Position numbers and translations under genes: made by a program. A model generated the notes under the pieces. That model was not told where the DNA came from. It worked only from the letters and a program-made list of their open reading frames with translations, and made no database searches. DNA of 41,363 bases from positions 1 through 41,363 of the forward strand of contig JAFRFO010000086.1 in NCBI GenBank assembly GCA_017434295.1. Reading direction: 5' to 3'. Positions 6,666 to 31,499 of the stretch are shown piece by piece. This DNA is from Clostridia bacterium. GTDB lineage: Bacteria; Bacillota; Clostridia; TANB77; CAG-508. Within the stretch, counting starts at the first letter, position 1. Each line of letters starts with the position of its first letter.

Positions 6666-7413
6666 TTATAGTATATTTATAATATCTTCTAATAATTCCT
6701 CACTTGAAATCTGATTATTTTTATTTTCTGTAATAAAAACTATTTTTTTGTCATCATCATTAAAGTATTCATATGTTTGGTATTTATCCATTTTTTCAAA
6801 ATTATAGTCTAAAATATCTCCTGTTACATCATCTACAATATAACATAAACTTGATACAACTAATATAGTTTGAGCATCACTATTTATTGACTTTTCAACT
6901 GTCTTATCTAACTCAGATTGATTGTTTTTTTTATCAATTATTAGATATCCTTCGCTATTTACCTTATATTCAGAATTTAATTTTTCATTATTATTTAGTA
7001 AATTAATAATTTTATCTCTACTATCATTTTCAATCCAAATGCCTTTTTCTTGTAGATAATTATTATACATTATTTCATCTAATTCTTCAAATTTAGGTAT
7101 TTCTTTTTTTATCATACTACAAAATGCTACTTTAAATTTTAAGTCTGCTTTTACAGATAAAACTTTTCTACCATCATATTCTGTTTGAATTTCATATATA
7201 TTGCTATTCGCATTTAATCCATAATCTTTTTTTTAATTCATCTATGGTCACATCTTCTTTATATGATATTTGGTTTTTGTCAACTGTTATATAATTGTTT
7301 TCTTGTATTTCATTATTTTCCTTATTGTTGTTTTTATCAAAAACTTTCACCATTATTACACATATAATAATTAAAGTTAAAACAACCATAAATATCAATA
7401 TCTTTTTCTTCAT
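6666..7413 (-). pseudogene. Signal-anchored hypothetical protein split by a single-base frameshift in an A8 tract
   Basis: The ORFs 7204..7413 (69 aa, N-terminal TM helix) and 6666..7115 (149 aa) fuse into one 248-codon frame if one A is removed from the A8 run (T8 on the plus strand, 7227-7234). My translation across the junction reads ..DELKKDYGLNANSNIYEIQTEYDGRKVLSVKADLKFKVAFCSMIKKEIPKF.. with no stop. Confidence 0.6.
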
Positions 7414-7431
7414 TTTTTTGCTTTACCCACT

Positions 7432-10239
7432 TTATAAATTTTTTAACATTTCCAATGTTGCATTAATATATCTATTACAGAATTTATTATTGACAACATC
7501 TTGATGTCCTTTTACTTCATTATTAGGTAATTCTATCAAGGCAGATTTTGCAGATTTATTATTATTTCCTAAGGTATTTCTAGCCCAACCAATTAAATAT
7601 CCTGTTCCATATCTTTCAATTGATGAACCATCATTTTCAGGAAATTGTTTTCCATAATAATAACATATATCTCTATCTCCAATTAATTGTTGTGTCCATC
7701 CATGTAAATCCACTAAAACTGTCTGTCCATTCTTTGACTTATTTTGTATCATAAAATCCCTTAAATATCTTGCCTCACAAGCCATAAATGGTTCGCTTCC
7801 TGTATAGTTTCTATTTGAGTAATTAGCTTGAAAGTTTGTAGACCAACATCGATTTAAATCTACTCCTTTTTCACCGTTACTTTTTAAAGTTGTTCTACCT
7901 GGTCCATTATTAGTATTTCCATGTTTTACTCCATCTACATTTATAGCTGGGAAAATATATATTGTCCATTTATCAGATAAATCATAATCTTCATTTTTTA
8001 TTAATGTTTGATAAAATTTTTCAGCAATTTCAACTAATTCATATCCATCGTGTGGCCATAAATCTTCGAATCCATGTATTGCAAATGTGGCAAAAAATAC
8101 ATTTGGTCCATTTCCATATTTAAAATATTCTAAATCGGAACCTTTTTTATCTCCAACTTCCTTCAGTCCTGTTCTACCATAATAACCTGAGTAATAACTA
8201 ATTTCATTTCTTACTTCAAAATTCTTGGTTTGATTATCTAATATTTTATTATTAAATATAGCTTGAACAGTTATAGTATGTTTTCCTATTGAATAATTTG
8301 AGAAATCAATTGTTATATAATATCCTGGATTTGTATTAAATATTGTATTATCTCCATATCCCTTTACATAGTTTATAACATCTTGTCGATAATTTCTTTG
8401 TATATTACTCAATTCTATATTATCTATTAGTACCTTAAGTGTTGTTTCCTTTTTGTTTGTCATAATCCATCCACTAACATTATGAACTTTATTGCTTATT
8501 TTATCTTTAGGTATATCTATACATACTCTTGCTTTTGCATCTTGTATTTTGGGTACTATTTTTATTTCTATTGCTTCTAGTATATATGCTAATCCTTGTG
8601 TTCCTGCAATTTCTCCATCATAGCACCAATTCTGCCAGCCTATATCCTGTATGTAAGTTCTATATAATATTGAGTATTCTTCTGTTCCCTCTAGTTTTAA
8701 TCTTATAGCCTCTAATCTTAAGCTTCTTCCTTCTGTTCCTGCAATTTCTCCATTTTCTTTCCATTCCTGCCATCCTACATCCTGAACATGTGCCATATAT
8801 TTTATACTTATATTTTCTGCATTTGCTAATTTTATTTTTATTCCTTCAATTCTTTTGCCTTTTCCTATAGTTCCTGATAATTCATCCGAATCAACAAAAT
8901 CTTGCCATCCAAAATCTTCTACATGGCTACTATAAGAAATTCCTATATCTTTAGTAACGAAAAAACTAATACTTGTTTTTACTATACTAACCCCTTCAGA
9001 AATATCACAAATTTTAACTGTATGTTTACCAGTTTCTAATTTACTAGTTTCTATTAAAACGGAAAAACCTGGTAATGGATTTTCTATTTCTTTTCCATAT
9101 TCTTTAACTAGATCTATAACATCTTGTCTTTTTTTATATTTTATTAAATCTTTATTGATAGCTTTTTCGCTATCATCGATAAAGATTTGTAGTTCATCAT
9201 TGCTAACATTAGACATTTTCCACCCAGATATTTCTAGTTTTTTGGGACTGTTGATTGTAAGTATCTCTTTTGGGGTATCAATGCATATTCTAGCTTTTTT
9301 TACCTTTTTTATAACCCTTATTTGTATTCCTTCAAGTCTTAGGCTTTGCCCGCTTGTACCAGCAATTTGTCCTTCATCTCTCCAATCTTGCCAACCTATA
9401 TTTTCAACATATACTCTATATTGTATTGAAAAATCGTTTGATTTTTCTAATTCCATTACTATAGCTTCTAGCCTTAAACTTCTTTCTGAGGTTCCAGCCA
9501 TTTCTCCATTTTGTTTCCAGTCTTGCCATCCTATATTTTGTACATGTACTTTATATTTTATTTTTAAATTCGGATAACTATTTAATTGTATTTTTATTGC
9601 TTCTAATCTTTTGCCTTGACCTTCTGTACCTGATAGTTCTCCGTCTTTTTTCCACTCTTGCCATCCTATATCTTGTATATGTGTTTGATATGTTATTCCG
9701 ATTTTTCTTTCAATTATTTTTATTTCTATAGCTTCAAGTCTAAGACTTTGTCCTTCTGTTCCTGCCATTTCTCCATCTTTTTTCCATGCCTGCCAACCAA
9801 TATCTTGCACATGCGCTCTATACTCAATGCTATACTTTTCTGTATTTTCTAATTCTATCTTTATTCCTTCTAATCTTTTATTTTCTCCTTCTGTTCCTGA
9901 TATTTCACCATCATATTTCCAATTTTGCCATCCTATATTTTGTATGTGTGTTTGATATTTTATTCTTATGCTGTCTGAATTATTTATTTTTATGGAAATG
10001 CCTTCTAGTCTTTTACTTTCTCCTTCTGTTCCAGATAATTCTCCGTTTTCTTTCCATTCTTGCCAGCCTATATCTTGTACATGTGTTTTATAAGATACTT
10101 CTACAATGTTTTCTTTATTAGTAATATCATTTTCACTTTCCTCATCTTTTAGGCTCGCATCCTTTGCCAACGCAAAATTTTGTATGATATATATTAAAAT
10201 GATAATAAATGTAAAAATATATAATACTTTTTTATTCAT
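7432..10239 (-). CDS. Secreted ChW-repeat protein with a C-terminal M14-family metallocarboxypeptidase domain (probable peptidoglycan stem-peptide hydrolase)
   Basis: 935 aa. Signal peptide, then six ChW repeats (consensus Y..HVQDIGWQ.W...GE.AGT.G...RLEAI.I.L), an Ig-like module, three more ChW repeats and a second paralogous Ig-like module. The M14 domain has HGFE (HxxE), GVDLNRCW (compare the GxDxNRNF motif) and DLHGW. Confidence 0.85.
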   Translation of the reverse strand: MNKKVLYIFTFIIILIYIIQNFALAKDASLKDEESENDITNKENIVEVSYKTHVQDIGWQEWKENGELSGTEGESKRLEGISIKINNSDSIRIKYQTHIQNIGWQNWKYDGEISGTEGENKRLEGIKIELENTEKYSIEYRAHVQDIGWQAWKKDGEMAGTEGQSLRLEAIEIKIIERKIGITYQTHIQDIGWQEWKKDGELSGTEGQGKRLEAIKIQLNSYPNLKIKYKVHVQNIGWQDWKQNGEMAGTSERSLRLEAIVMELEKSNDFSIQYRVYVENIGWQDWRDEGQIAGTSGQSLRLEGIQIRVIKKVKKARICIDTPKEILTINSPKKLEISGWKMSNVSNDELQIFIDDSEKAINKDLIKYKKRQDVIDLVKEYGKEIENPLPGFSVLIETSKLETGKHTVKICDISEGVSIVKTSISFFVTKDIGISYSSHVEDFGWQDFVDSDELSGTIGKGKRIEGIKIKLANAENISIKYMAHVQDVGWQEWKENGEIAGTEGRSLRLEAIRLKLEGTEEYSILYRTYIQDIGWQNWCYDGEIAGTQGLAYILEAIEIKIVPKIQDAKARVCIDIPKDKISNKVHNVSGWIMTNKKETTLKVLIDNIELSNIQRNYRQDVINYVKGYGDNTIFNTNPGYYITIDFSNYSIGKHTITVQAIFNNKILDNQTKNFEVRNEISYYSGYYGRTGLKEVGDKKGSDLEYFKYGNGPNVFFATFAIHGFEDLWPHDGYELVEIAEKFYQTLIKNEDYDLSDKWTIYIFPAINVDGVKHGNTNNGPGRTTLKSNGEKGVDLNRCWSTNFQANYSNRNYTGSEPFMACEARYLRDFMIQNKSKNGQTVLVDLHGWTQQLIGDRDICYYYGKQFPENDGSSIERYGTGYLIGWARNTLGNNNKSAKSALIELPNNEVKGHQDVVNNKFCNRYINATLEMLKNL
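8557..8943 (-). repeat. Coding tandem array of three ChW repeats
   Basis: Residues 433-561 of the 935-aa protein. The first unit is divergent (HVEDFGWQDF). Confidence 0.8.
9313..10101 (-). repeat. Coding tandem array of six ChW repeats (about 43-aa units)
   Basis: Residues 47-309 of the 935-aa protein. The GWQ.W and RLE(A/G)I anchors recur six times. Confidence 0.85.
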
Positions 10240-10266
10240 TTTATATAATATCCCTTTCTATTTTTC

Positions 10267-12583: not shown

Positions 12584-14833
12584 TTACCTACGAAGATACT
12601 GAGATGGCATAAATGCTTGCCTTCCATCTGATAGCATTACTCTAACCCAATTATAGCCATCAATATTATTATATAATCCTTCGTTTATAACAGTTAAACT
12701 TGTTCCATCGGCTAATGCTGTTATTCTATCTACCTTTGTTGTTGGTCCAACCCTAACATAGCAACCACTTCCATCAGCTGTTTTTACATATGCTGTATAA
12801 TTACAATTTATAACATCTGATACTTGTTGTAAATATGATCCTGACATAAATCCAACTGTTCCATCATTTAATACAACTTTTTGCCAGTTTGAGTTGATTC
12901 CTCTTTGAATTGATAATATTATTTCGCCATTTGAAACTAATCTTATAACACTGGAACTAGTATTGGCATCACTTCTTAAGTTTAAACCTCCATTTGCAAC
13001 TACTTTCACATTTATTGGTGTAGTTTCTGAATTATATGATGGCTGTGATGCATTATAACCTGCACTTTCGTATACTGGAATAATAAATGTAAAATTAGAG
13101 TCTATTTTGTTAGTATTTGAATACATACTTCTAAGGGTTCTTGCTTCACTATAAGCACCTAATAAGTTTTGCATATATTGATGAGTGTATAGTGAGGTTC
13201 CATTAGTTGAATCTATATCAAATTTGTTTTGATATAATGTATTTTGATAATTTTCTAACCAGTTCTTTTTACAAAAGCTTATTCCACCTTCTATGGCTTT
13301 TTGCATTGAGTCCCATCCATAAGATTTTGCTGTAGCTAATGCATTTGAATATATAGCATCATATCCATTGCCTGAAGCTCCAATATTGAATGGATTATAA
13401 TATGTTCTTCCATCTCCACCATTCATTCCTTTTCCAATTGTAGTTCCTGAATATCCTTGTTCTTGTATCAATCTAGCAATTATATAGTATGGATTTACTC
13501 TTGTATTAATACATGCATTGTTTATATCATTTGCATAGTTTTGTAAGAATGATCCATTTACTTTTGACTGTATTCCATCTAATGATACTGAATCAGATGA
13601 ATATGTATTTAAATCTAAGAACTGAAATACATTGGTATCATCTAAGAAATTTCTTGAATCCATATAGTATGCTATTGCTTTTTCTGATGCACAATACCAA
13701 CCACTGTCATATAATTTTGTTCCACATATACTGCATACCCATTCTCCTGAATAACTTGATGGAACTAAATTTCTTGAGTGTACTGCATATTCTCCTCTTA
13801 CCGCTTGATCTAATGTCAAACCAGTATATAACAGATTAAACTCCCAATTTGGATGTGCATTCATTAATTGTTGTATTTTTTCTTTATATCCTGGATATCG
13901 AGTTGTATCTATTGATAATGCATTTCCACTTTTTACAATTCTAATTTGAACTGCCTCTACTCTTAAGCATTGTCCTTCTGTTCCTGCTGTTTCTCCATTA
14001 GAAACCCAATTTTGCCAACCAATATCTTGTACATGTGCTCTATACTCGATTTTATAACCTGTAACACCTTCTAATTTAATTCTAATGGCTTCCATTCTCT
14101 TATTTTCCCCTGTTGTACCAGCAATTTCGCCATCTTGTTTCCAATCTTGCCATCCTATATTTTGTATATGGACTTGATATTTTATATGTTGTGAGGCTGT
14201 TTCATCTTCTAATTTAAGTTTTATTGCTTCCATTCTTAATGATTGTCCTTCGGTTCCTGCTGTTTCTCCACTTGCCACCCAATTTTGCCAACCTATATCT
14301 TGAACATGTGAACTATATTGCAAATCCGGTGTATTCTTTTGAAGTTTTATTTCAATTGCTTCTAATCTTAAACTTTGACCTTCTGTTCCTGCGATTTCGC
14401 CATCTTTTCTCCATTCTTGCCACCCTATGTCTTGCACATGTGTTCTATACATTATAGAATAATCTGATGTATTTTCTAAAACAATTTTAATAGCTTCTAA
14501 CCTTAAACTTTGGCCTTCTGTTCCTGCCATTTGTCCATTGCTTTTCCAGTCTTGCCACCCAATATTTTGTATATGTACTTGATATTTTATATTAATATTA
14601 TTATTGTTTAATTTTATATTTATTCCTTCTAATCTTAAGGCTAGATTTGTTGTTCCTGAAAGACTTCCATTGCTAACATAACCTTGCCACCCCACATCTT
14701 GTACATGAGATCTATAGCTTACAGTTAATCCTCCTCCACTAGATGTATTCTCCGCTTTTACTTGATAACTATACGAAAAAATAATATTAGTTATTAATAA
14801 CAAGATAAGTGCTACTGATACTATTTTTTTCAC
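12584..14833 (-). CDS. Secreted ChW-repeat peptidoglycan hydrolase: GH73-type N-acetylglucosaminidase plus two SH3-like domains
   Basis: 749 aa. Signal peptide and six ChW repeats. The central domain has IIARLIQEQGYSG (catalytic Glu region) and YYNPFNIGASG (compare the GH73 YNxFGI block). Two C-terminal SH3_3-like modules (..LNLRSDANTSS..WQKVVL.DGTVGFM..YL and ..CYVRVGPTT..WVRVMLSDGRQAFMPSQYL). Confidence 0.85.
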   Translation of the reverse strand: MKKIVSVALILLLITNIIFSYSYQVKAENTSSGGGLTVSYRSHVQDVGWQGYVSNGSLSGTTNLALRLEGINIKLNNNNINIKYQVHIQNIGWQDWKSNGQMAGTEGQSLRLEAIKIVLENTSDYSIMYRTHVQDIGWQEWRKDGEIAGTEGQSLRLEAIEIKLQKNTPDLQYSSHVQDIGWQNWVASGETAGTEGQSLRMEAIKLKLEDETASQHIKYQVHIQNIGWQDWKQDGEIAGTTGENKRMEAIRIKLEGVTGYKIEYRAHVQDIGWQNWVSNGETAGTEGQCLRVEAVQIRIVKSGNALSIDTTRYPGYKEKIQQLMNAHPNWEFNLLYTGLTLDQAVRGEYAVHSRNLVPSSYSGEWVCSICGTKLYDSGWYCASEKAIAYYMDSRNFLDDTNVFQFLDLNTYSSDSVSLDGIQSKVNGSFLQNYANDINNACINTRVNPYYIIARLIQEQGYSGTTIGKGMNGGDGRTYYNPFNIGASGNGYDAIYSNALATAKSYGWDSMQKAIEGGISFCKKNWLENYQNTLYQNKFDIDSTNGTSLYTHQYMQNLLGAYSEARTLRSMYSNTNKIDSNFTFIIPVYESAGYNASQPSYNSETTPINVKVVANGGLNLRSDANTSSSVIRLVSNGEIILSIQRGINSNWQKVVLNDGTVGFMSGSYLQQVSDVINCNYTAYVKTADGSGCYVRVGPTTKVDRITALADGTSLTVINEGLYNNIDGYNWVRVMLSDGRQAFMPSQYLRR
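13937..14725 (-). repeat. Coding tandem array of six ChW repeats
   Basis: Residues 37-299 of the 749-aa protein. Shares 15-30-nt near-identical DNA stretches (for example CCTTCTGTTCCTGC on the plus strand) with the arrays in 7432..10239. Confidence 0.85.
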
Positions 14834-15009: not shown

Positions 15010-15990
15010 TTATATTTTACTATAAAACCATAATGCAATTTTTCCTAACTTCATTTTATTTAATATCATAAACATTTTGGTAACGATTCTTACACTAAGT
15101 ATATCTCCATCTGGTTTTAAAAAACCAATCATTTTATTTTTCTTATAATCTGGAAATTTTTCTTCTAACCAATTAAATAATTTATCATATTCTTCACTTA
15201 TTATTTTATATGGTAATTTTTTTGTAGAAAAAGTTAATAACCAAACGGCATACCTTGTAAAGTATGTTTTTATTAAATCATAGTTTTTGTCTAATAATTC
15301 ACTTTCTTTTAGCATTTTATAACAACTATTAAGCAATTCATAAACTTGCAAATTTCTAATATCTTTTTGCTTAGAATTAGAGACACTTGTTGTATTATAA
15401 AACCAGTTATATCCTATGTAATCTATTATTTTTATTTTATCACTAGCCAACAATGCTTTTAGATTAAAGTAAACATCTTCTCCTAAATTTACATTTAAAA
15501 ACTCAATATTATTCTTTATCAAAAATTCTTTTTTATATATTTTTGCCCATGGTGCCATAATTAGAAACTTATTCCATTGCTTATCTACTAATTTCATTTG
15601 TTTTAGTATTTTTTGATTATCATTAATTCTTCTATATCCACCTATTACAACATCATAATCATTTTCTTCAATTTCATTTATAAATGTTTCAATATAGTTT
15701 TTGTCAATATAATCATCATTATCAATAAACATTATATATTGTCTATTTGCTTTTTTTATACTTTCATTTCTTGTTATTGCAACTCCCTTATTATCTTGTT
15801 CAATAGCTATTATTTTGTTAGGATATTTTTTCTTATAATCATTTATTATTTCTTGTGATTTATCATTTGAACCGTCATTTACAATCATTATTTCATAATT
15901 TGAATATGTTTGATTTAAAATACTATCTATACATTTGCCAATAAATTTTTCTGAATTATATACTGGAACTATTAATGTTACCTTTTTCAT
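15010..15990 (-). CDS. Family 2 glycosyltransferase
   Basis: 326 aa. VTLIVPVYNSEKFIGKCIDSILNQTY..IMIVNDGSNDKS and a FIDNDD (DxD) motif. ATGA overlap with the upstream flippase gene. Confidence 0.85.
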   Translation of the reverse strand: MKKVTLIVPVYNSEKFIGKCIDSILNQTYSNYEIMIVNDGSNDKSQEIINDYKKKYPNKIIAIEQDNKGVAITRNESIKKANRQYIMFIDNDDYIDKNYIETFINEIEENDYDVVIGGYRRINDNQKILKQMKLVDKQWNKFLIMAPWAKIYKKEFLIKNNIEFLNVNLGEDVYFNLKALLASDKIKIIDYIGYNWFYNTTSVSNSKQKDIRNLQVYELLNSCYKMLKESELLDKNYDLIKTYFTRYAVWLLTFSTKKLPYKIISEEYDKLFNWLEEKFPDYKKNKMIGFLKPDGDILSVRIVTKMFMILNKMKLGKIALWFYSKI

Positions 15991-17231
15991 TTTTCTATCT
16001 CCCTCGTAAAAATTACTTTTAGTTTTAAATTAGTATAAACAGTATATATTAGAAATTGCAATGACATTATTGCTAAATATGCCCATATAGCTCCATCTAT
16101 ATTCCATGTTTTAGTTAATATATCAGAAATAATTAAGGCAAATATTGATATTATTACATAAATAATAAATTGTGAAAATGTTTCTCTAACAGTTGTTAAG
16201 ACTGAAGAATATATTATACCGATTGTATATAATGTTGATGATATTATAATGATTAATAATCCTATTTTATACATGCTTAAGTCAATTCCATATATTAGTC
16301 CTAATAACTGTGTGCCTATAAAATAGGCTAAAATTGATGATATAATTCCTATACAAGCTATTGCTAATATCAATTTCATTATAATCTTTTTCAGTTGTTT
16401 TAGATTTCTTTCTTCATATACTTTTAATATCTGATTTAAAAATGGATGTATCAAAAATTGAGCAACTAATCCTATAACTGTTGCTGGCATTACAATTATT
16501 CAGAATATGGTTTGTATATCATTTCCTAAATATGTATCTATAGAATATTTAGGAGCATTTAATATGTATAATCCTAAAAATGCTATGGCAAATGTAGTAA
16601 AGCCAAATCTAAATATTTTTAAGACATTTTTCCAGTTTACCTTTTTAGAATAATCAATATGTGTTTTAGATTTTTTTAAGTCAAATAGTATAATAATTAT
16701 TATCCAAATAATTATAGCAGATATTATTGATAAAATAACATTTTTAGATATAATATCAACTACTATAAATGCACAAATAGACACTATTGATTTTATAAAC
16801 AATGATTTACCAACTATCTCTAATTTTTCATTCTTTTGTAAAATACCATATATTACTTCACTAAATGCTTCTAAGGATTTATAAAATGTTAATAATAAGA
16901 AGATAATTGTTTTATAAGCATCATATTTTCTTATTAAGCAAAATGCTAGTACTAAAATATTCATTAATGCAACAGTTATTATCCTATTAATTATGTATTC
17001 TTTATTTGTTATAGATTTATCTGGTTCGGTTACTTGATAAATCCTTCCGGCATATATACCTATAACATATATTATACATGCTGTTGCATAACCTATTGTA
17101 AATACTCCAGCATTTTCTATTCCATTTATTCTAGTAACTGCTATCATAAAAAATAAAGAATTAAATGCATTTATCCCTGTTCCTAATATATTCCAAATAA
17201 AATTCTTTTTAAATTGTATATCTTTATTCAT
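15987..17231 (-). pseudogene. Wzx-type (MOP superfamily) polysaccharide / lipid-linked sugar flippase interrupted by one in-frame TGA
   Basis: ORFs 16500..17231 (243 aa) and 15987..16490 (167 aa) are in the same frame. The junction reads ..GNDIQTIF-TGA-IIVMPATVIGLVAQF.. with the TGA at 16500-16502. The combined 414 codons carry about 12 TM helices, the normal size and shape for this family. Confidence 0.75.
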
Positions 17232-17302: not shown

Positions 17303-18091
17303 TTATACATTATTTGTCTTTACAGCACTCTTATAAAACTTCATTAAGAATTTAGCAATTGGTGTTGGCCAAAATTTTTTAAACATTGTAAAATCTTCTT
17401 CCAGTCTAACATTATTTTGAATTAAATTTGATGTTTCTGAATCTTCATGTATTCTATGCAACATTATCTCTTTATTAATATATAGAAATGCATAATTCTT
17501 TTGTGCAAAATCATACCAAGTATCCCAATCCAAATCACATTTCAAGTCTATTTTATATGGTTTTTTTCCTGTAATGTGAGTATTAATTGTTACACATGGA
17601 CAGCATATTGCTGAACCAAATTTTAATGCAAACATTTTAGCTTTTTTACTATTTCCATCTTTTTTTAGTTTTGATAATAAAAATTTTTTTATTTTTAAGT
17701 TTTTAGTTAGTGGTACTATTTCTCCATTTTTAATCTCTCTATAATCTCCAAATGCAATAATAAAATCTTTATTTTTGTTTATTTCATTTACTATTTCTTC
17801 TAAATAATTAGTATTGTATATATCATCTTGATGTGCAACAGTAACATATTTAGTTTTAGCTTTGCTAACACCAAAATTCCAATCTTGTCCTATTCCACTT
17901 TCTCCTTCATTAATAAATAGTTCTAAATTATGTTTTTTAGCAATTTCTTTTATAAAAGTATTTGGCGTAGATGTAGCAATTATTATATTGCTTTTTACAC
18001 TTTGGTTCTCTAAAGATTTTATACATTCTTCTAAATATTTAGATTCTTTATAGGCACAAACAACAAATGTATGATTATTAAATTCTGGCAT
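17303..18091 (-). CDS. Family 2 glycosyltransferase
   Basis: 262 aa. HTFVVCAYKESKYLEECIKSLENQ start and AHQDD (DxD-like) motif. Confidence 0.8.
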   Translation of the reverse strand: MPEFNNHTFVVCAYKESKYLEECIKSLENQSVKSNIIIATSTPNTFIKEIAKKHNLELFINEGESGIGQDWNFGVSKAKTKYVTVAHQDDIYNTNYLEEIVNEINKNKDFIIAFGDYREIKNGEIVPLTKNLKIKKFLLSKLKKDGNSKKAKMFALKFGSAICCPCVTINTHITGKKPYKIDLKCDLDWDTWYDFAQKNYAFLYINKEIMLHRIHEDSETSNLIQNNVRLEEDFTMFKKFWPTPIAKFLMKFYKSAVKTNNV

Positions 18092-18093
18092 AT

Positions 18094-18462
18094 TTATTCC
18101 TTCCTTTTTTCTTTTTCACTTTTTTCTTTTTCACTTTTTTCAATTTTTTCTTTTAATATCCCTAATTCTTGTGTTAATTTAACAATCATTTTGTTTTGTT
18201 TTGTTAAAACTGTTGATATATGAATAATATATGCGCCTAATATTATTATTGCAAACAAAAACATTAATGCAGGTGGATAATATACATTAAATTTATTAGC
18301 AAATATTGTAATAATATCAGGGAAAACAGATACTACAAGTATCACAAAACTAGCAAACAACCATAAAATTGAATATTTTTCATCTAATTTATTTTTCTTT
18401 ACTAGGTTTATTATAAATAATATTAAAATTATAGAAAAAATTATTGCAAATTTATATATCAT
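18094..18462 (-). CDS. Small three-TM membrane protein, DUF2304 / GacJ-like
   Basis: 122 aa. Three hydrophobic helices then a charged coiled tail (..KEKIEKSEKEKSEKEKRKE). Size, topology and position directly after a polyprenyl-phosphate GT2 domain match the DUF2304 family as I recall it. Confidence 0.55.
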   Translation of the reverse strand: MIYKFAIIFSIILILFIINLVKKNKLDEKYSILWLFASFVILVVSVFPDIITIFANKFNVYYPPALMFLFAIIILGAYIIHISTVLTKQNKMIVKLTQELGILKEKIEKSEKEKSEKEKRKE

Positions 18463-18472
18463 TTCTTTCCTC

Positions 18473-20599
18473 CTATTTTTTTAACCCCATTAATAATATT
18501 GATAGTGTTACTTTAAACATATAACTAATTGATTTTAATGGAGATATAGATGATACCCCTGTTTCTCTTTGTTTCATTTCAACTGGTATTTCCTTAACAG
18601 TATAACCTTTTTTTACTATACTCATATTTGTACATGGTTCAGGATAATCGTATGGATATTCTTCAACAAATTCTTCAATAATGTTTTTATTTACTGCTCT
18701 ATATCCAGAAGTAGTATCATATATTTTAACTTTTGTCATTTTTTTAATTATATATGAAATAAGATTTATTCCTAACATTCTAAATACAGTTTGATCATAG
18801 CTTGTTTTTTTAACAAATCTTGAACCAATAACCATATCATTTCCTTGGTTTATTTCATCTATTAAATCCTTTAAATATCTAGGATCATGTTGACCATCAC
18901 CATCTATTTGTATAGCTATGTCGTAATTGTTATTTTTTGCATACCTATATCCTGTTTGTACTGCTCCTCCTATTCCCAAATTATTAGGAGCGTCTAAAAC
19001 TATCGCTTTTGTTTTTAATGCATTTTTTAAAGTATTATCTTTAGAACCATCATTAATAACTATAACATCACATTTTTCTATTTTTTGTTCATACACACTA
19101 TTTACAACCTTTTCTATTGCTGCTTCTTCATTATAAGCTGGAATTATTACTAGTGTTTTTGGATTTTCTTTATTTAATTCATTATTTTTTTTGCAATATT
19201 TTATATTTTTTTGTTTAATTAAGGTTTCAGCAAGTACTAATATAGTGAAATATTCTGTCATAAAGCATGGATAAAAATATCTTTGATCTTGTGATGATAT
19301 CAGAAAAATATATGTTCCTATATTTAATAACATAGGTAATAATAAGAATATATATCTATAATTTTTTGTTTTTATCCATACAATTAATACTGCTATCATG
19401 GAAATAATTATTGCAACTGCTGGTCTATATATAAGCTCATACATTCCATGATTTTCTAAAGTTCCTATTGAATAATCCCATAATCTTTCATGCATATCTT
19501 CAAGAATTGGATAATTATCATATACTCCATTTGTAGATTCAGACAAATAGCCATTACTCAATATTATACTATGCATTGGTGCTTTTTCTTCAATACTCCA
19601 CCAAATCGAATTTACATTAATAAAATGTTTTACAATTGTCATTGGATCTTTAGTTGCGTATTTCATAAATATATCGTTAAACTTTTTATTTCCTTCATCT
19701 GTTCCTAGAATTTGTTCATTATATTTTGAACTAAATAGTATTGGTGTACCATTATATGCATCATAATCTTTTTTCCAATCTTCTACACTATAAATAGTAT
19801 TTAAAAATTCCTTTTCTTCTTGTTCCAATTCAATATCTGTATTTAGTAATGCTCCCATACAGTAAACTTTTGTCGAGTCTAATACTCCCCCAACACTTGC
19901 CGTTTTTGTTTTGTCTCCCCATATCCACTTAGGTAAAGTCATTAGTATCAAGATTGTTATAAATGAAATAATTAGTGTCAAAGATTGTTTTAGTTTTTTA
20001 TTGTTTTTTAAATTTAATATAAATAATAATAAAAACATAAATAATCCAATAGGCATTCCATTATGTCTTAATTTCATTATAGCTGCTGCCGAAATGGAAA
20101 TCATTATCATTTCAAATGTAGAATATTTATACTTTTCTTTAATTCCTATATACACAAATACCAAAATAGCAAGTATGCTATATGAATACAAAATATCCTT
20201 CCATAATACAATTGAGTATATAAAATTTAAGGGTAAAATACATATAACAATAGTAAATAGTATTTGAAATACTTTATTTTTAGTTGTATCATTGTACTTT
20301 CTTACTTTTTTACAAGCATAAGTCCATATAAATGTGAAAGTAATTATTTGAAATAACTCTGGTACCCATATTCCGCCCAGTTTAGCTAAGTTTCCGATTA
20401 CAAATGAATGAAAAATAGGATGAGCATCTCTATATAAATTATCTTTAGCTTGTGAAATTTGATCTACAATATCACTTGTTAGTAATCCTGGAAAAAAAGA
20501 TAATAAAGCAACAATAAATACAACAGCTACTATTAGAAAAATAATAATATCTGTTTTTTCAATTTTAATTTTCTTTGTGTTAATGTTTTTCTTCTTCAT
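18473..20599 (-). CDS. Fusion protein: N-terminal polytopic membrane domain (DUF6020 / GT-C-like) plus C-terminal polyprenyl-phosphate glycosyltransferase (GT2, GtrB/GacI/DPM1-like)
   Basis: 708 aa. Residues about 1-465 hold about 10 TM helices, an SDIVDQISQ....YRDAHPIFHS first-loop motif and a soluble loop of about 170 aa (225-393). Residues 481-708 have LVIIPAYNEE, VINDGSKDNT, IQIDGDGQHDP and a YDTTSGYRA block typical of Und-P/Dol-P sugar synthases. Confidence 0.8.
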   Translation of the reverse strand: MKKKNINTKKIKIEKTDIIIFLIVAVVFIVALLSFFPGLLTSDIVDQISQAKDNLYRDAHPIFHSFVIGNLAKLGGIWVPELFQIITFTFIWTYACKKVRKYNDTTKNKVFQILFTIVICILPLNFIYSIVLWKDILYSYSILAILVFVYIGIKEKYKYSTFEMIMISISAAAIMKLRHNGMPIGLFMFLLLFILNLKNNKKLKQSLTLIISFITILILMTLPKWIWGDKTKTASVGGVLDSTKVYCMGALLNTDIELEQEEKEFLNTIYSVEDWKKDYDAYNGTPILFSSKYNEQILGTDEGNKKFNDIFMKYATKDPMTIVKHFINVNSIWWSIEEKAPMHSIILSNGYLSESTNGVYDNYPILEDMHERLWDYSIGTLENHGMYELIYRPAVAIIISMIAVLIVWIKTKNYRYIFLLLPMLLNIGTYIFLISSQDQRYFYPCFMTEYFTILVLAETLIKQKNIKYCKKNNELNKENPKTLVIIPAYNEEAAIEKVVNSVYEQKIEKCDVIVINDGSKDNTLKNALKTKAIVLDAPNNLGIGGAVQTGYRYAKNNNYDIAIQIDGDGQHDPRYLKDLIDEINQGNDMVIGSRFVKKTSYDQTVFRMLGINLISYIIKKMTKVKIYDTTSGYRAVNKNIIEEFVEEYPYDYPEPCTNMSIVKKGYTVKEIPVEMKQRETGVSSISPLKSISYMFKVTLSILLMGLKK

Positions 20600-20628: not shown

Positions 20629-22431
20629 TTATTCAATGCTTAAGAATTTTTCAACACTTTCTTTTGCTTTTTTAGAATATTCTTTCTTCCATTCTTTATA
20701 TAATTCTAAAATCTTTTCTCTGTTTTCTAAATCATATTTTATTTTATTATATATTTCCATTATATCATCTTCTTTAGTAACAACTAAATATTTTTCTAAT
20801 TCAGTTCCTGTAAAATAATGATGATTATCTCCTGTTATACATACTGTTCCCAGTTCTAAACTTTCTAATGGAATTAGCGGTGCACATTCAGTAAATGTAA
20901 CATATACATTTATATCATTATTTGCAATTCTTTTATATATTTCTTCTTTTGGTACATTTGTTTCTTCGCCTGTTAAATTAACTTTATATCTTCTACATAA
21001 TGTTGAAATCTTACTATTAATTGGTATGCAATCTAATTTAACATCTTCAAATAAACTTATAGCACTTATTTGATTATAAGTATTTTTTACCCATCTATCT
21101 CCTGATGAGTATAATCCAATTTTAAGAACTTTATTATCTTTGTTTTTTGGAATGTATTGTTCTTTATTTTCTATAATTACATCATTCATTAAGAAACTTG
21201 AATTATAACCTTTTGCTTTATAAAACTCATATAAACTCTTCTTAACAAAACAAAGTTCATCAACTTGTCCCCTTTCATATAAGTTAAGCATTATATTATG
21301 AACTTCCCAATCATAGCATTCAGATAATAAAGCATTACCACCATGTATTATTAATTTTACAATAATATCTGGTTTTATTTCTTTTAAAGATGTTATAATA
21401 TTTTCCCATCCATTAGCAAAAGCATTAAAAACAACCATTTTTTTACCTGCGTTGACTATTTCTTTAGAAATCATATATGCTTCTTTTTTTGTATACTGTT
21501 CTCTAATTTCTAATATATTATCTCCAAAAGTATATTTAGTTGAATTTTTTACTCCTATCCATTCTGGATGGCATATTGCAACATATTTTTCACTTTGTTT
21601 AGAAAGAGCTTGCTTGATTTTATTTACTCTCTTATTTCTATTAACATAAATAGAATATTTTATTGCCCATTTATGCACAAAATTCTGTATATTCCATTTA
21701 ATAGAGTTTTTAATATTTCCTATTTTATCAATTGATTTATTAATAAACTTTCCAAGCTTTGGTCCACATTTTCTATATATTCCAATTGTTCTTTTTTCTC
21801 CCTTACTTGTCCATGTTCCTTTAAACAAATGTACCATTCTTGTATTTTTAGTATATAATTTTTCAGAATAATCATAGCTAATTGGATAAAAATATTCTCT
21901 AGGATATATATATATATTTCCATCAAATAGTTTTACTCCATTTTCTAATGTTTTACATTCATATTTTTTTATGATATTTGTTATAATTATTGGATTGGTA
22001 TAATTGTAGATACTTTGTATATAAAAATGTTCTAGTTTATCATAATAATCTAATATCTCTTTTATATATTTATTATGTTTTTCCTTAACGCCTATTACTG
22101 CTGTTCCAAAATAGCCACTATCTTCATACCCCATAAACATATTTTTTTCTCTAATATCATCTATATCTTTAAGAATTTTTACATCTGTATCTAAATATAT
22201 ACCTCCTTCATTATATAAAGCATAAATTCTTGCATAATCACTTACAAAAGCCCATTTTTTATTTTCATAAGCTTCCTTTACGAAATTACATGAATTTATA
22301 TCGAAATTTTTTTCATTCCATTGAATTATTTCATAATCCGGTAATATTTTTTTCCATGTTTTTATACATTTTTTTACACTTGTTGGTAAAGGTTTTCCAC
22401 CAAACCAACAATAATGAATTTTCTTTTCCAT
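20629..22431 (-). CDS. Two-domain glycosyltransferase: N-terminal DXD sugar-binding (Gly_transf_sug / GT32-like) plus C-terminal GT-B (GT4-like) domain
   Basis: 600 aa. KIHYCWFGGKPLP...CIKTWKKILPDYEIIQWNEKNFD....GGIYLDTDV at the N-terminus. The C-terminal half ends in FTECAPLIPLESLELGTVCITG, which resembles the GT4 E-x7-E region. Confidence 0.7.
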   Translation of the reverse strand: MEKKIHYCWFGGKPLPTSVKKCIKTWKKILPDYEIIQWNEKNFDINSCNFVKEAYENKKWAFVSDYARIYALYNEGGIYLDTDVKILKDIDDIREKNMFMGYEDSGYFGTAVIGVKEKHNKYIKEILDYYDKLEHFYIQSIYNYTNPIIITNIIKKYECKTLENGVKLFDGNIYIYPREYFYPISYDYSEKLYTKNTRMVHLFKGTWTSKGEKRTIGIYRKCGPKLGKFINKSIDKIGNIKNSIKWNIQNFVHKWAIKYSIYVNRNKRVNKIKQALSKQSEKYVAICHPEWIGVKNSTKYTFGDNILEIREQYTKKEAYMISKEIVNAGKKMVVFNAFANGWENIITSLKEIKPDIIVKLIIHGGNALLSECYDWEVHNIMLNLYERGQVDELCFVKKSLYEFYKAKGYNSSFLMNDVIIENKEQYIPKNKDNKVLKIGLYSSGDRWVKNTYNQISAISLFEDVKLDCIPINSKISTLCRRYKVNLTGEETNVPKEEIYKRIANNDINVYVTFTECAPLIPLESLELGTVCITGDNHHYFTGTELEKYLVVTKEDDIMEIYNKIKYDLENREKILELYKEWKKEYSKKAKESVEKFLSIE

Positions 22432-24811: not shown

Positions 24812-25937
24812 TTAATTATTTAATAATTTTTTAATTTTTTCTATAATAATATCATTATTATATTTTTCTTCTATTTCTTGATTTTCAACCTTTTTATTGT
24901 CTTGAATTATTTGTTTTAATCCTTCAAAAATACTTTCTTCGTTATTTTCTAATATGGTACTTTTTGGATAATTTTCTACTGTTTCTCTAGCTGCTGTATC
25001 CGTTATAATAATTGATTTATTTAATATTTTTGCTTCTACTAATACCATTGGATATCCTTCAAAATTAGATAGTAAGCAGAAATAATCAGCTTCTTTAATA
25101 TAAGGATATGGATTTTCTTTTTTGCCTAAAAGATGAAATGTATCGTTTATTTTATTGTCATCTATCATTTTTTGTAATTTTTCTTTTTCTGGTCCATCTC
25201 CAATTACATACATTTGATGTGATATATTTTCTTCTATTAATCTCTTGTGAACTCTTATTAATCTATCAATTGCTTTTTGTGGTACTAGCCTAGCTACTGT
25301 AACAATATTAATATTGTTAGAATCAAATCTTATTTCTGGCTGTTCCTCTGCTTTATTTAATACTTTTTCTTTATCTATATAATTAAAAATTACTTCTTTT
25401 TTTACTAGTTCCAAATATTTATTTCTAATTTCTTTATAAACTTGTTTGAATTTTCTCATGTTGTCTTTACTAACAAACACAATAGTTTCGTATTTTGAAT
25501 ATATTTTTTTGTCTATATATTTTTTTATTTTTGATTTTAAACCATTTCCAAACACTAGTGAAATATCATTATGTACCCATACTATTTTTCTTGTTTTTTT
25601 ATTTTTACAACTTATTAATCTTGTAACCGGTCCTTCAAGAAAGGCAATTTCAACATCATAATCTGCTTTAATATATTTTTTATAAATTCCATTTTTATTT
25701 AATAATACTTTTAATGGAATTATTTTTTTCTCAAATTTTCCGCAATTCAGTATACTGTTTATTATATAATGATTTTAGTTTTACTTTTTCTGATAACTGC
25801 TTTTCTAACTCTCCACCAGAATATATTGTGAAAATTGTAATATCATATTCATTACATAATTTATTTGCAATGTCTACTAATACTCTCTCTGCTCCACCAA
25901 GTGTTAAACTAGTTATTCCAAATAATATTTTTTTCAT
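24812..25937 (-). pseudogene. GT4 (GT-B) glycosyltransferase with a single-base frameshift
   Basis: The N-terminal ORF 25731..25937 (MKKILFGITSLTLGGAERV..) and the C-terminal frame (..IAFLEGPVTRLIS..VWVHNDISLVFGNG.. to 24812, with EGYPMVLVEAKILNKSIIITD) overlap between 25731 and 25774. Removing one base, most simply from the A4T3 run at 25733-25739, gives a continuous 374-aa GT4. Confidence 0.8.
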
Positions 25938-30549: not shown

Positions 30550-31029
30550 CTAATTATTATCAATAAAATCACTTACAATATTAAGTATTTTATTTGTATT
30601 ACTAACAAAATGCTGTGGTTCAAATGTATTTATAGTTTTTATTGCATCTTCCAAATCCGATACATCTTTTATCCCTTTTATAAATCCCTGTCCATCAAAT
30701 GTTTCTATTATTTGAACTTGATGATCATTTACATGTTCGTTATATTTTTTTTGTCTTGGAACTGCAATTATTTTTTTGTTTAGCTTAAGTGATGTAACAA
30801 TTGACCCTACTCCTCCATGACATATAATATAATCTGCATCTTGTATATAATTATTTAATTCTTTTGTAGGAATCAGTCCAAATATTTTCATATTATCTGA
30901 TTCAAACTTTGTGCAACCTGCTTGTACAATTACTTCAGTATTTATTATTTTATTATCTATACATTTTTGAACTTCTTCTAATAATCTATGGAAACTATTA
31001 TTTTGAGTTCCTAACAATACTAAAACCAT
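30550..31029 (-). CDS. PssE/Cps14G-type glycosyltransferase subunit (Alg13-like, GT28 C-terminal domain)
   Basis: 159 aa. VLLGTQNNSFHRLL, ICHGGVGS, AVPRQKKYNEHVNDHQ blocks. Confidence 0.8.
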   Translation of the reverse strand: MVLVLLGTQNNSFHRLLEEVQKCIDNKIINTEVIVQAGCTKFESDNMKIFGLIPTKELNNYIQDADYIICHGGVGSIVTSLKLNKKIIAVPRQKKYNEHVNDHQVQIIETFDGQGFIKGIKDVSDLEDAIKTINTFEPQHFVSNTNKILNIVSDFIDNN

Positions 31030-31499
31030 TAATAAATTGATCCCCCTAACACTGCTTTTGGATATACTTTAAGCAATTCTTCCCACTGAACTATAAATAA
31101 ATCAGCAAATTTATATATAAGCTTTCCTGTGGCCGTTTTTGTATATCTATTTGCAAAGGTTTCTATATAAATTATTTTTCTTCTAAAAATTTTTCCTAAA
31201 ACACACATTGGTCCTGCTGTATGAGTTCCTGTTGTAATAATATATTTAGGTCTTATTTTTATGAATAAAAACACTGTAATAAAGCAATTTATTAAAAACT
31301 GAAAGATATATTTAAACATATGTGCTCTTGTTCCATAAAGCATATAAGATATTTTATCTTTATATTCGTCTTTGAAACTAGCTGTCATTTCATCTTTTTC
31401 AGTTACTATATGATAATCATATTTTTCAAATAATGGTTTTAATTGTAATAATTCACTAAAATGTCCACCAGTACTTGAGATAAACATTACTTTTTTCAT
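31029..31499 (-). CDS. PssD/Cps14F-type glycosyltransferase subunit (Alg14-like membrane partner)
   Basis: 156 aa. ISSTGGHFSELLQL, ITTGTHTAGP, IYIETFAN and FIVQWEEL..YPKA blocks. TAATG overlap with the Alg13-like gene. Confidence 0.8.
   Translation of the reverse strand: MKKVMFISSTGGHFSELLQLKPLFEKYDYHIVTEKDEMTASFKDEYKDKISYMLYGTRAHMFKYIFQFLINCFITVFLFIKIRPKYIITTGTHTAGPMCVLGKIFRRKIIYIETFANRYTKTATGKLIYKFADLFIVQWEELLKVYPKAVLGGSIY

Follow-up and report, generated by a model that had tools for sequence, protein, structure and literature searches.

A GT-C-like membrane domain fused to a polyprenyl-phosphate sugar synthase in a putative transmembrane glycosylation module of an uncultured Clostridia bacterium

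The subject of this analysis is a block of glycosylation genes in a metagenome-assembled genome (MAG) of an uncultured Clostridia bacterium (GenBank assembly GCA_017434295.1, contig JAFRFO010000086.1), studied within a window of 41,363 nucleotides (nt), i.e. the whole stretch of DNA that was analyzed. The block is headed by a gene for a 708-aa protein (18473..20599, minus strand), in which a polytopic N-terminal membrane domain (hereafter N-domain) is joined to a C-terminal family 2 glycosyltransferase (GT2) domain. The evidence moderately favored reading the block as a module for transmembrane glycosylation by several components, comparable to GacIJKL or WpsA-B-G-J, with the first and the last enzymes of the pathway placed in one polypeptide. 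The fusion itself is recurrent and is not an assembly artefact.

The fusion protein and its homologues

Three minus-strand open reading frames (ORFs) were present exactly where a sequence-only reading of this DNA had placed them, i.e. at 18473..20599 (708 aa), 18094..18462 (122 aa) and 17303..18091 (262 aa), and the motifs quoted in that reading (IPAYNEE, IQIDGDGQHDP and TSDIVDQ...DAHP) were all found in the 708-aa translation. The start codon of the 708-aa ORF at 20599 stands behind a strong ribosome-binding site, GAAAGGAAG. The N-domain occupies residues 1-460 (19220..20599) and is followed by a lysine-rich cytoplasmic linker of residues 461-477 (19169..19219), leading from the tenth transmembrane (TM) helix to the GT2 domain of residues 478-708, which together with the stop codon takes up 18473..19168, all on the minus strand. 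Seven Lys/Arg residues fall within segment 458-484. The AlphaFold model of the full protein had a predicted local distance difference test score (pLDDT) of 89.9 and a predicted template modeling score (pTM) of 0.69; low pLDDT was seen at linker residues 465-467 in both models made.

The homologue census covered the best 120 of 177 clusters returned at 90% identity. Complete fusions of 700-725 aa accounted for 91 of these 120 clusters at 41-99% identity, and the DxDxQ motif was retained in all but two of them (89/91). An assembly error joining two genes into the 708-aa ORF was considered and rejected, because 91 clusters share the architecture and the ribosome-binding site is strong; an internal start at Met447 was likewise rejected, since no ribosome-binding site precedes its ATG. 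The deposited annotation of the contig contains only a 262-aa product from Met447 (18473..19261), i.e. the GT2 part, and the fusion is hidden there because the record starts at Met447, though the full ORF has the ribosome-binding site. A scan of genome contigs with the single protein as a query gave three weak loci of no relevance.

The C-terminal synthase domain and its DUF2304 partner

The C-terminal domain matched the Pfam GT2 model (PF00535) at residues 484-643 with E 3.5e-28. The ranking of NCBIfam models was headed by PpgS, a polyprenyl-phosphate-GalNAc synthase (1.2e-25), and AglJ (4e-24), followed by a dolichyl-phosphate-hexose transferase and then by PgaC. A profile built from 86 homologues recovered DPMS (1e-23), ArnC (7e-20) and GtrB (4e-19) among PDB sequences, and the top 25 Foldseek matches of the full model were all ArnC, GtrB or DPMS structures, with E from 1.5e-10 (ArnC) to 4.5e-7. 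Aligned pairwise with Escherichia coli ArnC over its entire catalytic region, the domain was 24% identical, and its DGDGQ fell on DADLQ of ArnC. Like GacI, WpsA and PpgS, it is devoid of TM helices; its last element is an amphipathic helix (687-706). All three comparisons (NCBIfam, PDB sequences and Foldseek) grouped it with the polyprenyl-phosphate sugar synthases and not with the processive synthases, in agreement with the sequence-only reading. By homology, it is very probably a synthase of undecaprenyl-phosphate (Und-P)-linked sugars, in the same class as GacI, PpgS, DPMS, ArnC and GtrB. Which sugar it transfers does not follow from the matches, because all NCBIfam scores were far under the equivalog cutoffs; the PpgS model itself gave 90 bits against a cutoff of 370, so that the domain is not a PpgS orthologue. 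N-acetylhexosamine can be guessed at from the analogous enzymes GacI, WpsA and PpgS.

The gene for the 122-aa small membrane protein (18094..18462, minus strand) begins 10 nt past the stop codon of the fusion, behind a strong ribosome-binding site, TAGGAGGA. Its product, with three hydrophobic segments (5-21, 31-47 and 66-82), matched Pfam DUF2304 (PF10066) over profile positions 5-105 of 106 with 89.1 bits against a cutoff of 25.5, so that the DUF2304 likeness proposed earlier holds far above the cutoff. It stands directly downstream of the fusion in all six fused lineages compared (window/L009-11, L004, L006-8, L017, L018 and L019). The DUF2304 proteins GacJ, WpsB and Rv3632 activate GacI, WpsA and PpgS, respectively, and these synthases depend on them (10.1101/180810; PMC10821137). 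With good confidence, the small protein can be regarded as the partner of the GT2 domain, presumably as its activator and membrane tether.

The N-terminal membrane domain

The N-domain matched Pfam DUF6020 (PF19484) at residues 60-458 and profile positions 186-592 of 604, with 26.3-26.7 bits. The DUF6020 assignment of the sequence-only reading thus held for the extent of the match, but its score (26.3 bits) was under the cutoff of 28.3. Of 41 relatives, 29 matched DUF6020 at E < 0.01 (best 9.7e-15). Because the first ~185 profile positions are lacking, the N-domain is best called a short DUF6020-like form.

Since the whole-protein Foldseek search was dominated by the GT2 domain, the N-domain was modeled and searched separately. 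Its model (pLDDT 91.2, pTM 0.91) begins with TM1 (15-34), which is followed by two outer-loop helices (42-53 and 62-75), TM2-7 (78-227), a loop domain (228-392) and TM8-10 (393-460). The predicted seven-TM module comprises helices 15-34, 78-101, 106-128, 134-154, 161-177, 181-200 and 203-227; the loop domain, of ~165 residues, is mostly helical and lies at the outer face. The 10-TM layout with a large outer loop (~170 aa in the sequence-only reading) therefore agrees with the AlphaFold models. Lys/Arg residues number 27 in the six predicted cytoplasmic segments but 7 in the four short loops outside, a distribution which, by the positive-inside rule, places both termini inside; the GT2 domain must in any case be cytoplasmic because it uses nucleotide sugars.

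Conservation was scored over 143 representatives at <=50% identity. Near-invariant were P37, D43, Q47, Q50, H60-P61, Q84, P123, W133-K134-D135, R178-x-N180-G181 and R440-Y441; D43 (putative catalytic Asp43, encoded at 20471-20473) was found in 140/143 representatives (98%), and D135 and R178 in all 143. According to the model and the positive-inside topology, the conserved polar residues all lie at outer-face loop/helix boundaries. A conserved acidic first loop, as claimed earlier, was confirmed for D43 but not for D46 (kept in 34%) and D58 (60%).

GT-C(A) enzymes are defined by seven conserved TM helices forming one module, by a helix pair in the first luminal loop, whose leading helix bears the catalytic base, and by a variable module (PMC13503287). 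The predicted structure of the N-domain fits this definition with its seven TM helices, two loop helices with D43 opening the first, and a variable part made of the loop domain and three TM helices. In the Foldseek search against the PDB, the top 13 matches were all GT-C enzymes (ArnT, ALG3, AglB, Pmt4, Pmt1/2, EmbB and ALG9) with probability 0.80-1.00, E from 0.018 (ArnT, best) to 0.28 and query-normalized TM-scores of 0.31-0.45 (best Pmt4). All matches with probability >= 0.5 were GT-C enzymes, except one chain of the glycosylphosphatidylinositol transamidase, and channels and transporters received 0.04-0.12. The layout and the ranking of the matches thus spoke for the GT-C-like N-domain proposed earlier, but the matches were statistically weak and came without sequence or profile support. 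The predicted structure makes it probable that the N-domain has a GT-C(A)-type fold, and suggests a catalytic role for it. On the three points most critical for the sequence-only reading, i.e. the fold and acidic loop of the N-domain, the grouping of the GT2 domain and the DUF2304 likeness of the small protein, the results went in its favor.

Module layout and its split and decayed forms

The window has ~25% G+C and nearly all its genes are on the minus strand. In the direction of transcription, the module consists of the 708-aa fusion, the DUF2304 gene, the 262-aa GT2, a Wzx-like gene and a 326-aa GT2. The gaps between the first four genes are 10, 2 and 71 nt, and the 326-aa GT2 gene overlaps the end of the Wzx-like gene by 4 nt, because of which the block reads as one operon. 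A Wzx-like or bona fide Wzx gene was found within six genes of the fusion in five of the six fused lineages, and a 600-aa Gly_transf_sug protein was encoded directly upstream of it also in 5/6. The locus of L006-8, with the fusion and DUF2304 and without the extra GT2 and Wzx genes, looks like a simple version of the module.

The two domains were also found apart. Among the 120 best-listed clusters, 12 had only the membrane domain, in 468-494 aa; identity was 45-65% for the nine nearest of them, and stand-alone forms of 470-494 aa were seen at 53-58%. At two split loci (L012 and L014) the membrane domain was accompanied by the Wzx-like gene, the 326-aa GT2 and, three genes downstream, a stand-alone AglJ/DPM-like GT2, which scored 231 bits to AglJ and had a DPMS match in the PDB; no DUF2304 gene was present at either locus. 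In four proteins (P0109-P0112) the fused GT2 was shortened at the C-terminus and had lost its DxD, while the N-domain signature was kept. At locus L019 of this sublineage (7001-10248) the fused GT2 is degenerate, and a 75%-identical copy of the stand-alone synthase follows right after the retained DUF2304 gene; in this sublineage the fused synthase looks functionally replaced by a stand-alone GT2. In the loci examined, the membrane domain therefore travels with a polyprenyl-phosphate sugar synthase, fused or not. Because it does so and keeps its signature when the GT2 decays, its function is probably independent of, yet linked to, the fused synthase.

The N-domain profile retrieved 8,831 representative clusters (50% identity) at E <= 1e-3 and 1,172 at E <= 1e-30. 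The top 143 representatives included 53 stand-alone domains, 76 extended at the N-terminus by 130-280 aa, which represent the DUF6020 portion missing from the window protein, and ~13 with C-terminal extensions.

These forms bear on the alternative that the N-domain is mainly an anchor, activator or scaffold for the GT2 domain, like domain D1 of Ppm1, with the Und-P-sugar not being used by it. The missing TM helix of the GT2 domain would fit such a role, as would two published cases: the Ppm1 domains are separate, interacting proteins in other species (PMC3460810), and an engineered WpsB-WpsA fusion, with the membrane partner at the N-terminus, is active (PMC10821137). However, a dedicated tether and activator, the DUF2304 protein, is kept in 6/6 lineages, and the most conserved residues of the N-domain are polar and lie at the outer face, far from the cytoplasmic GT2. 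Moreover, the domain persists alone or with a decayed GT2 with its signature intact, and most of the sampled top 143 of the 8,831 clusters are without a fused GT2. A mere scaffold is thus considered improbable.

Two further proteins in the homologue set, P0116 (773 aa) and P0120 (766 aa), combine a polyprenyl-phosphate-type GT2 with other ~530-aa polytopic domains, in either order and without a Pfam match. They show that the general architecture is not unique to the N-domain family, whose profile detects neither of them. P0116 has the same TM/loop layout and a 'RYAY' motif near the last TM helices, and may be a very divergent relative of the family.

The Wzx-like gene and neighboring glycosyltransferases

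The Wzx-like gene (15987..17231, minus strand) codes for a polytopic membrane protein of 414 aa when intact, with at least nine hydrophobic segments. The sequence-only reading gave it as a Wzx-type flippase gene, but in the window the ORF is interrupted and its family assignment is sub-threshold. Two in-frame ORFs, of 243 and 167 aa, are separated by a TGA codon at 16500-16502; three sibling assemblies, differing from the window at 5 of 7,432 nt across the module, have GGA (Gly244) at that codon and an intact 414-aa protein. The TGA is either a true nonsense mutation inactivating the flippase or an error of the MAG consensus; its reading as a sense codon was rejected, since the other ORFs are intact and the siblings have GGA at that codon. 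The family assignment stayed under the Pfam threshold: Polysacc_synt gave 19-21 bits against a cutoff of 28.2 (N-terminal half in the window and two of five orthologues), and no Pfam domain was recognized in any of the 120 closest homologues. Alignment with hhalign to annotated Wzx proteins gave E 0.002-0.026 and was collinear from the N-terminus, and two homologues had been named 'O-antigen/teichoic acid export membrane protein' by the Joint Genome Institute. Neither the single sequence nor a 23-sequence profile matched any PDB sequence. A flippase function for this protein is moderately probable.

Because the Wzx-like gene is truncated, the module is possibly crippled in this genome, or another flippase serves it. 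An alternative drawn from the same facts is that the fusion represents a self-contained carrier-lipid cycle, in which the GT-C-like domain would free Und-P outside and the tethered synthase would reload it inside, with the polytopic domain, alone or in complex with DUF2304, taking part in carrying Und-P or the sugar-loaded lipid from one face to the other, so that no dedicated flippase would be needed. On this reading DUF6020 would also become a new GT-C family of ~8,800 representative clusters. The L006-8 loci without an adjacent flippase, and the present genome with the truncated Wzx-like gene and the rest of the module intact, would fit it. We consider such a cycle rather unlikely.

The 262-aa protein (17303..18091, minus strand) is a soluble GT2 of the GT-A type (Pfam GT2, E 4.5e-19) with a 60%-identical orthologue at the same position in L004; from its position, it may lengthen the Und-P-linked sugar on the cytoplasmic side. 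The 326-aa GT2 (15010..15990, minus strand; E 1.2e-36) is a conserved member of the module, with equivalents also of 326 aa in L004, L012 and L014 and others with 31-32% identity in L017, L018 and L019. Upstream of the fusion, a 600-aa two-domain glycosyltransferase (20629..22431, minus strand) combines, according to Pfam, a Gly_transf_sug/GT32-like N-terminal domain with a DXD motif and a weakly GT-B-like C-terminal part. It is the most constant neighbor of the membrane domain, with orthologues in L004, L006, L012, L014, L017 and L019, and is found even at loci without DUF2304.

Proposed mechanism

The favored scheme has four steps. On the cytoplasmic face, as strongly suggested by homology, the GT2 domain would load undecaprenyl phosphate with one sugar taken from a nucleotide sugar, assisted by the DUF2304 protein. 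The gene context suggests that the 262-aa and 326-aa GT2s, and possibly the 600-aa GT32-like enzyme, would then build a short oligosaccharide, as WpsC-F do in Lactococcus. The Wzx-like protein might flip the lipid-linked glycan. Finally, the model, the conservation pattern and the co-occurrence with synthases point, with moderate strength, to the DUF6020-like N-domain as an outer-face glycosyltransferase of the GT-C(A) type. Asp43, where the first helix of the outer loop begins, would be the catalytic base, and the invariant basic residues K134, R178 and R440 may hold the lipid phosphate. The N-domain would thereby pass the glycan from Und-P to a wall glycopolymer exported by the ABC transporter of the locus and anchored by an LCP enzyme. 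The fusion would offer a 1:1 stoichiometry and the co-localization of donor synthesis with donor use. From its fusion and co-occurrence with polyprenyl-phosphate sugar synthases, it is fairly probable that the N-domain consumes the lipid-linked product of this module.

Several results weigh against this scheme. As to the N-domain itself, the window protein falls under the Pfam gathering cutoff for DUF6020; in the PDB, no Foldseek match reached E <= 1e-3 (best E 0.018, TM <= 0.45), its profile retrieved no sequence even at E <= 10, and hhalign gave no alignment with E. coli ArnT. An absent sequence signal between GT-C families is normal (PMC9574508). No DUF6020 member is biochemically characterized, and a literature search on 'DUF6020' matched no paper. 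With a pTM of 0.69, how the full model orients its two domains to each other is uncertain. As to the module, L006-8 has no adjacent flippase, and in the present genome the Wzx-like gene is a nonsense mutant. Furthermore, the synthase is one of several partners of the family: the N-domain is elsewhere fused to a GT32-like domain (N-terminal), GT4, two GT2, Acyl_transf_3 or DUF2142, in proteins P0122 (GT32-like/Gly_transf_sug), P0139, P0143, P0151 and P0189. Fusing to polysaccharide-modifying enzymes, cytoplasmic or membrane-bound, is thus a habit of the membrane-domain family and, since the partners vary, a fusion signals a shared pathway but not necessarily a pair of donor maker and donor user.

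The same variety of partners keeps alive the alternative of a GT-C-type enzyme that polymerizes or ligates repeat units carried on Und-P or Und-PP (WpsH/Wzy/WaaL-like) instead of attaching a side chain to a backbone, with the fused GT2 just priming the chain. The other partners include chain-building glycosyltransferases (GT32-like, GT4 and twice GT2), and in Lactococcus lactis WpsA/B make the Und-P-GlcNAc on which a polymer is started, proteins of the GT-C fold both polymerizing and transferring it (PMC10821137). Moreover, the locus resembles a Wzx-dependent heteropolysaccharide pathway: it encodes PssD/PssE, several GT2 and GT4 enzymes and a Wzx-like protein, and the window contains no initiating phosphoglycosyltransferase. 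On the other hand, the locus already has a separate gene for such a role, whose product is of the O-antigen-ligase/Wzy type (476 aa, PF13425, E 2e-45), and the Foldseek neighbors of the N-domain are single-transfer GT-C(A) enzymes (ArnT, ALG3/9 and PMT) and not of the SEDS or WaaL type. A polymerase or ligase is accordingly judged unlikely, albeit the strongest of the alternatives.

The wider locus and the acceptor

In the direction of transcription, the locus starts with an LCP ligase, followed by PssD/PssE, GT4, GT2 and GT2 genes, the O-antigen-ligase-like gene, a frameshifted GT4, a GT2, a TagF-like glycerophosphotransferase adjoining the module, and the module itself; it continues with ChW wall proteins, an ABC-2 exporter, rmlD, rmlA, rmlC and rmlB. 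The PssD/PssE pair (30550..31499), a split glycosyltransferase of the Cps14F/Cps14G- and Alg14/Alg13-like type, scored above the NCBIfam cutoffs. Neither an initiating phosphoglycosyltransferase of the WecA/TagO or CpsE type nor another GT-C(A)-like candidate was found anywhere in the window. The rml genes placed in the same locus by the sequence-only reading were confirmed, rmlABCD lying in the co-directional array. Its polyrhamnose-type ABC exporter was not: the best matches of the exporter were TagH and the galactan Wzt, i.e. generic.

A polyrhamnose backbone is plausible, and the chances that the acceptor is a rhamnose-containing wall polymer appear about even. Instead of an ABC-exported rhamnose wall polysaccharide, the target might be a teichoic-acid-like polymer, lipoteichoic acid or, by a PMT-like O-glycosylation, surface proteins. 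The matches of the exporter and the adjacent TagF-like gene would agree with such a target, no glycosyltransferase in the window matched the rhamnosyltransferase model, the best TM-score of the N-domain was to the protein O-mannosyltransferase Pmt4, and the stand-alone synthases of the split loci resemble AglJ, an enzyme of S-layer glycosylation. Yet rmlABCD are part of the same co-directional array and an LCP ligase heads the locus; with another target, the acceptor changes but the mechanism does not. We regard such a target as having a low probability.

Two further features of the locus were observed. The GT4 gene at 24812..25937 (minus strand) is frameshifted near an A7 tract at ~25720-25730, leaving a 68-aa N-terminal piece (MKKILFGITSLTLGGAERV...) and a 247-aa C-terminal half in different frames. 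The sibling assembly L009 has the same split, which is possibly a phase-variable site or a pseudogene. Large ChW-repeat wall proteins, with Peptidase_M14, SH3_3, GH25 or Amidase_3 domains, lie in or flank the glycopolymer locus in several lineages (7432..10239 and 12584..14833 in the window, 17237-20137 in L004, 256-1968 and from 15900 onward in L012), which suggests that the ChW repeats bind the polymer made by the locus.

Significance

Each part of the module is already known in kind, the fusion is common in metagenomic Clostridia, and the finding overturns no current concept. The fused, split and decayed forms together provide a Rosetta-stone argument that the N-domain family works with polyprenyl-phosphate sugar synthases, and its most likely role is that of an outer-face GT-C transferase in wall-glycopolymer decoration in Clostridia. 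If this is true, the multi-component glycosylation scheme of streptococci and lactococci would extend to a different class of Firmicutes. A synthase and transferase in a single chain could ease the study of the coupling among donor synthesis, flipping and transfer. The result also points to genes that set the surface glycan diversity of uncultured gut Clostridia, and hence to phage receptors and host recognition.

Comparison with known systems

A literature search for fusions of a GT-C protein with a polyprenyl-phosphate GT2 found only the GacJ-GacI fusions and Mt-Ppm1. The claim that the fusion is uncharacterized therefore stood as far as a GT-C-like domain joined to an Und-P-sugar synthase is concerned, but Mt-Ppm1 is a precedent for a membrane enzyme joined to a synthase. 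In Mt-Ppm1 (Rv2051c), too, a polytopic outer-face enzyme is N-terminal to a polyprenyl-phosphate sugar synthase, the two being encoded by adjacent genes in related species, and its domain D1 stimulates the polyprenyl-phosphate mannose synthase domain (PMC3460810). In contrast to the window protein, however, its membrane domain is an N-acyltransferase (Lnt) which does not consume the lipid-linked sugar. The natural GacJ-GacI (DUF2304-GT2) fusions of Geobacter, Desulfuromonas and others likewise have the membrane partner N-terminal to a GacI-like synthase (10.1101/180810; PMC10821137), but this partner is a small activator, whereas in the window it is a 460-residue GT-C-like domain and DUF2304 is separate.

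With the GT-C(A) enzymes (ArnT, PMT, ALG3/9/12, AglB/PglB and EmbA-C) the N-domain shares, in its predicted structure, the seven-TM module, a first outer loop of two helices with an Asp on the first (PMC13503287), and a C-terminal module that varies and includes a domain outside the membrane; basic residues facing outward are conserved in both. It differs from them in having no detectable sequence similarity and weak Foldseek scores.

In Mycobacterium tuberculosis, PpgS (Rv3631), Rv3632 and Rv3779 take part in the galactosamine decoration of arabinogalactan, where the sugar on its lipid carrier is consumed by a GT-C enzyme on the outer side. Among NCBIfam models, PpgS was the one that the GT2 domain matched best (90 bits), and Rv3632 is the DUF2304 partner stimulating PpgS (10.1101/180810). 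The mycobacterial proteins are separate, as are those in the reviewed multi-component glycosylation schemes.

The GacI/GacJ/GacK/GacL system, adding the GlcNAc (N-acetylglucosamine) side chain in Streptococcus pyogenes, has in common with the window a GT2 synthase without TM helices, an adjacent DUF2304 gene, a Wzx-type candidate and a polytopic GT-C-like protein, in a similar setting, the surrounding locus for wall polysaccharide also containing rml, ABC-exporter and LCP genes (10.1101/180810; PMC9574508). In the window, however, the synthase and the GT-C-like protein are joined in one chain; moreover, extra GT2s lie beside the flippase gene, which is truncated and has a sub-threshold assignment. 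The analogy with GacIJKL drawn by the sequence-only reading was therefore right in the kind of module, but the lactococcal WpsA/B-G-J system is closer, flanking GT2s being present. In Lactococcus, the GacI/GacJ-like pair WpsA/WpsB makes Und-P-GlcNAc, which is elongated by the cytoplasmic GT2 enzymes WpsC-F, flipped by the Wzx-type protein WpsG and grafted by the GT-C enzyme WpsJ, as a pellicle or oligosaccharide, onto the ABC-exported rhamnan (PMC10821137, PMC9574508). The gene order of the window (synthase, DUF2304, GT2, Wzx-like, GT2) matches. As in the two-chain scheme of lactococci, one polymer is exported by an ABC transporter and another chain depends on an Und-P-sugar synthase and a Wzx-like protein. 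The lactococcal components are all separate, with only the engineered WpsB-WpsA fusion described, while the window comes from a MAG of an uncultured member of the Clostridia. Because extra GT2 genes adjoin the flippase gene, the oligosaccharide scheme of Wps fits the window module at least as well as the monosaccharide scheme of GacIJKL.

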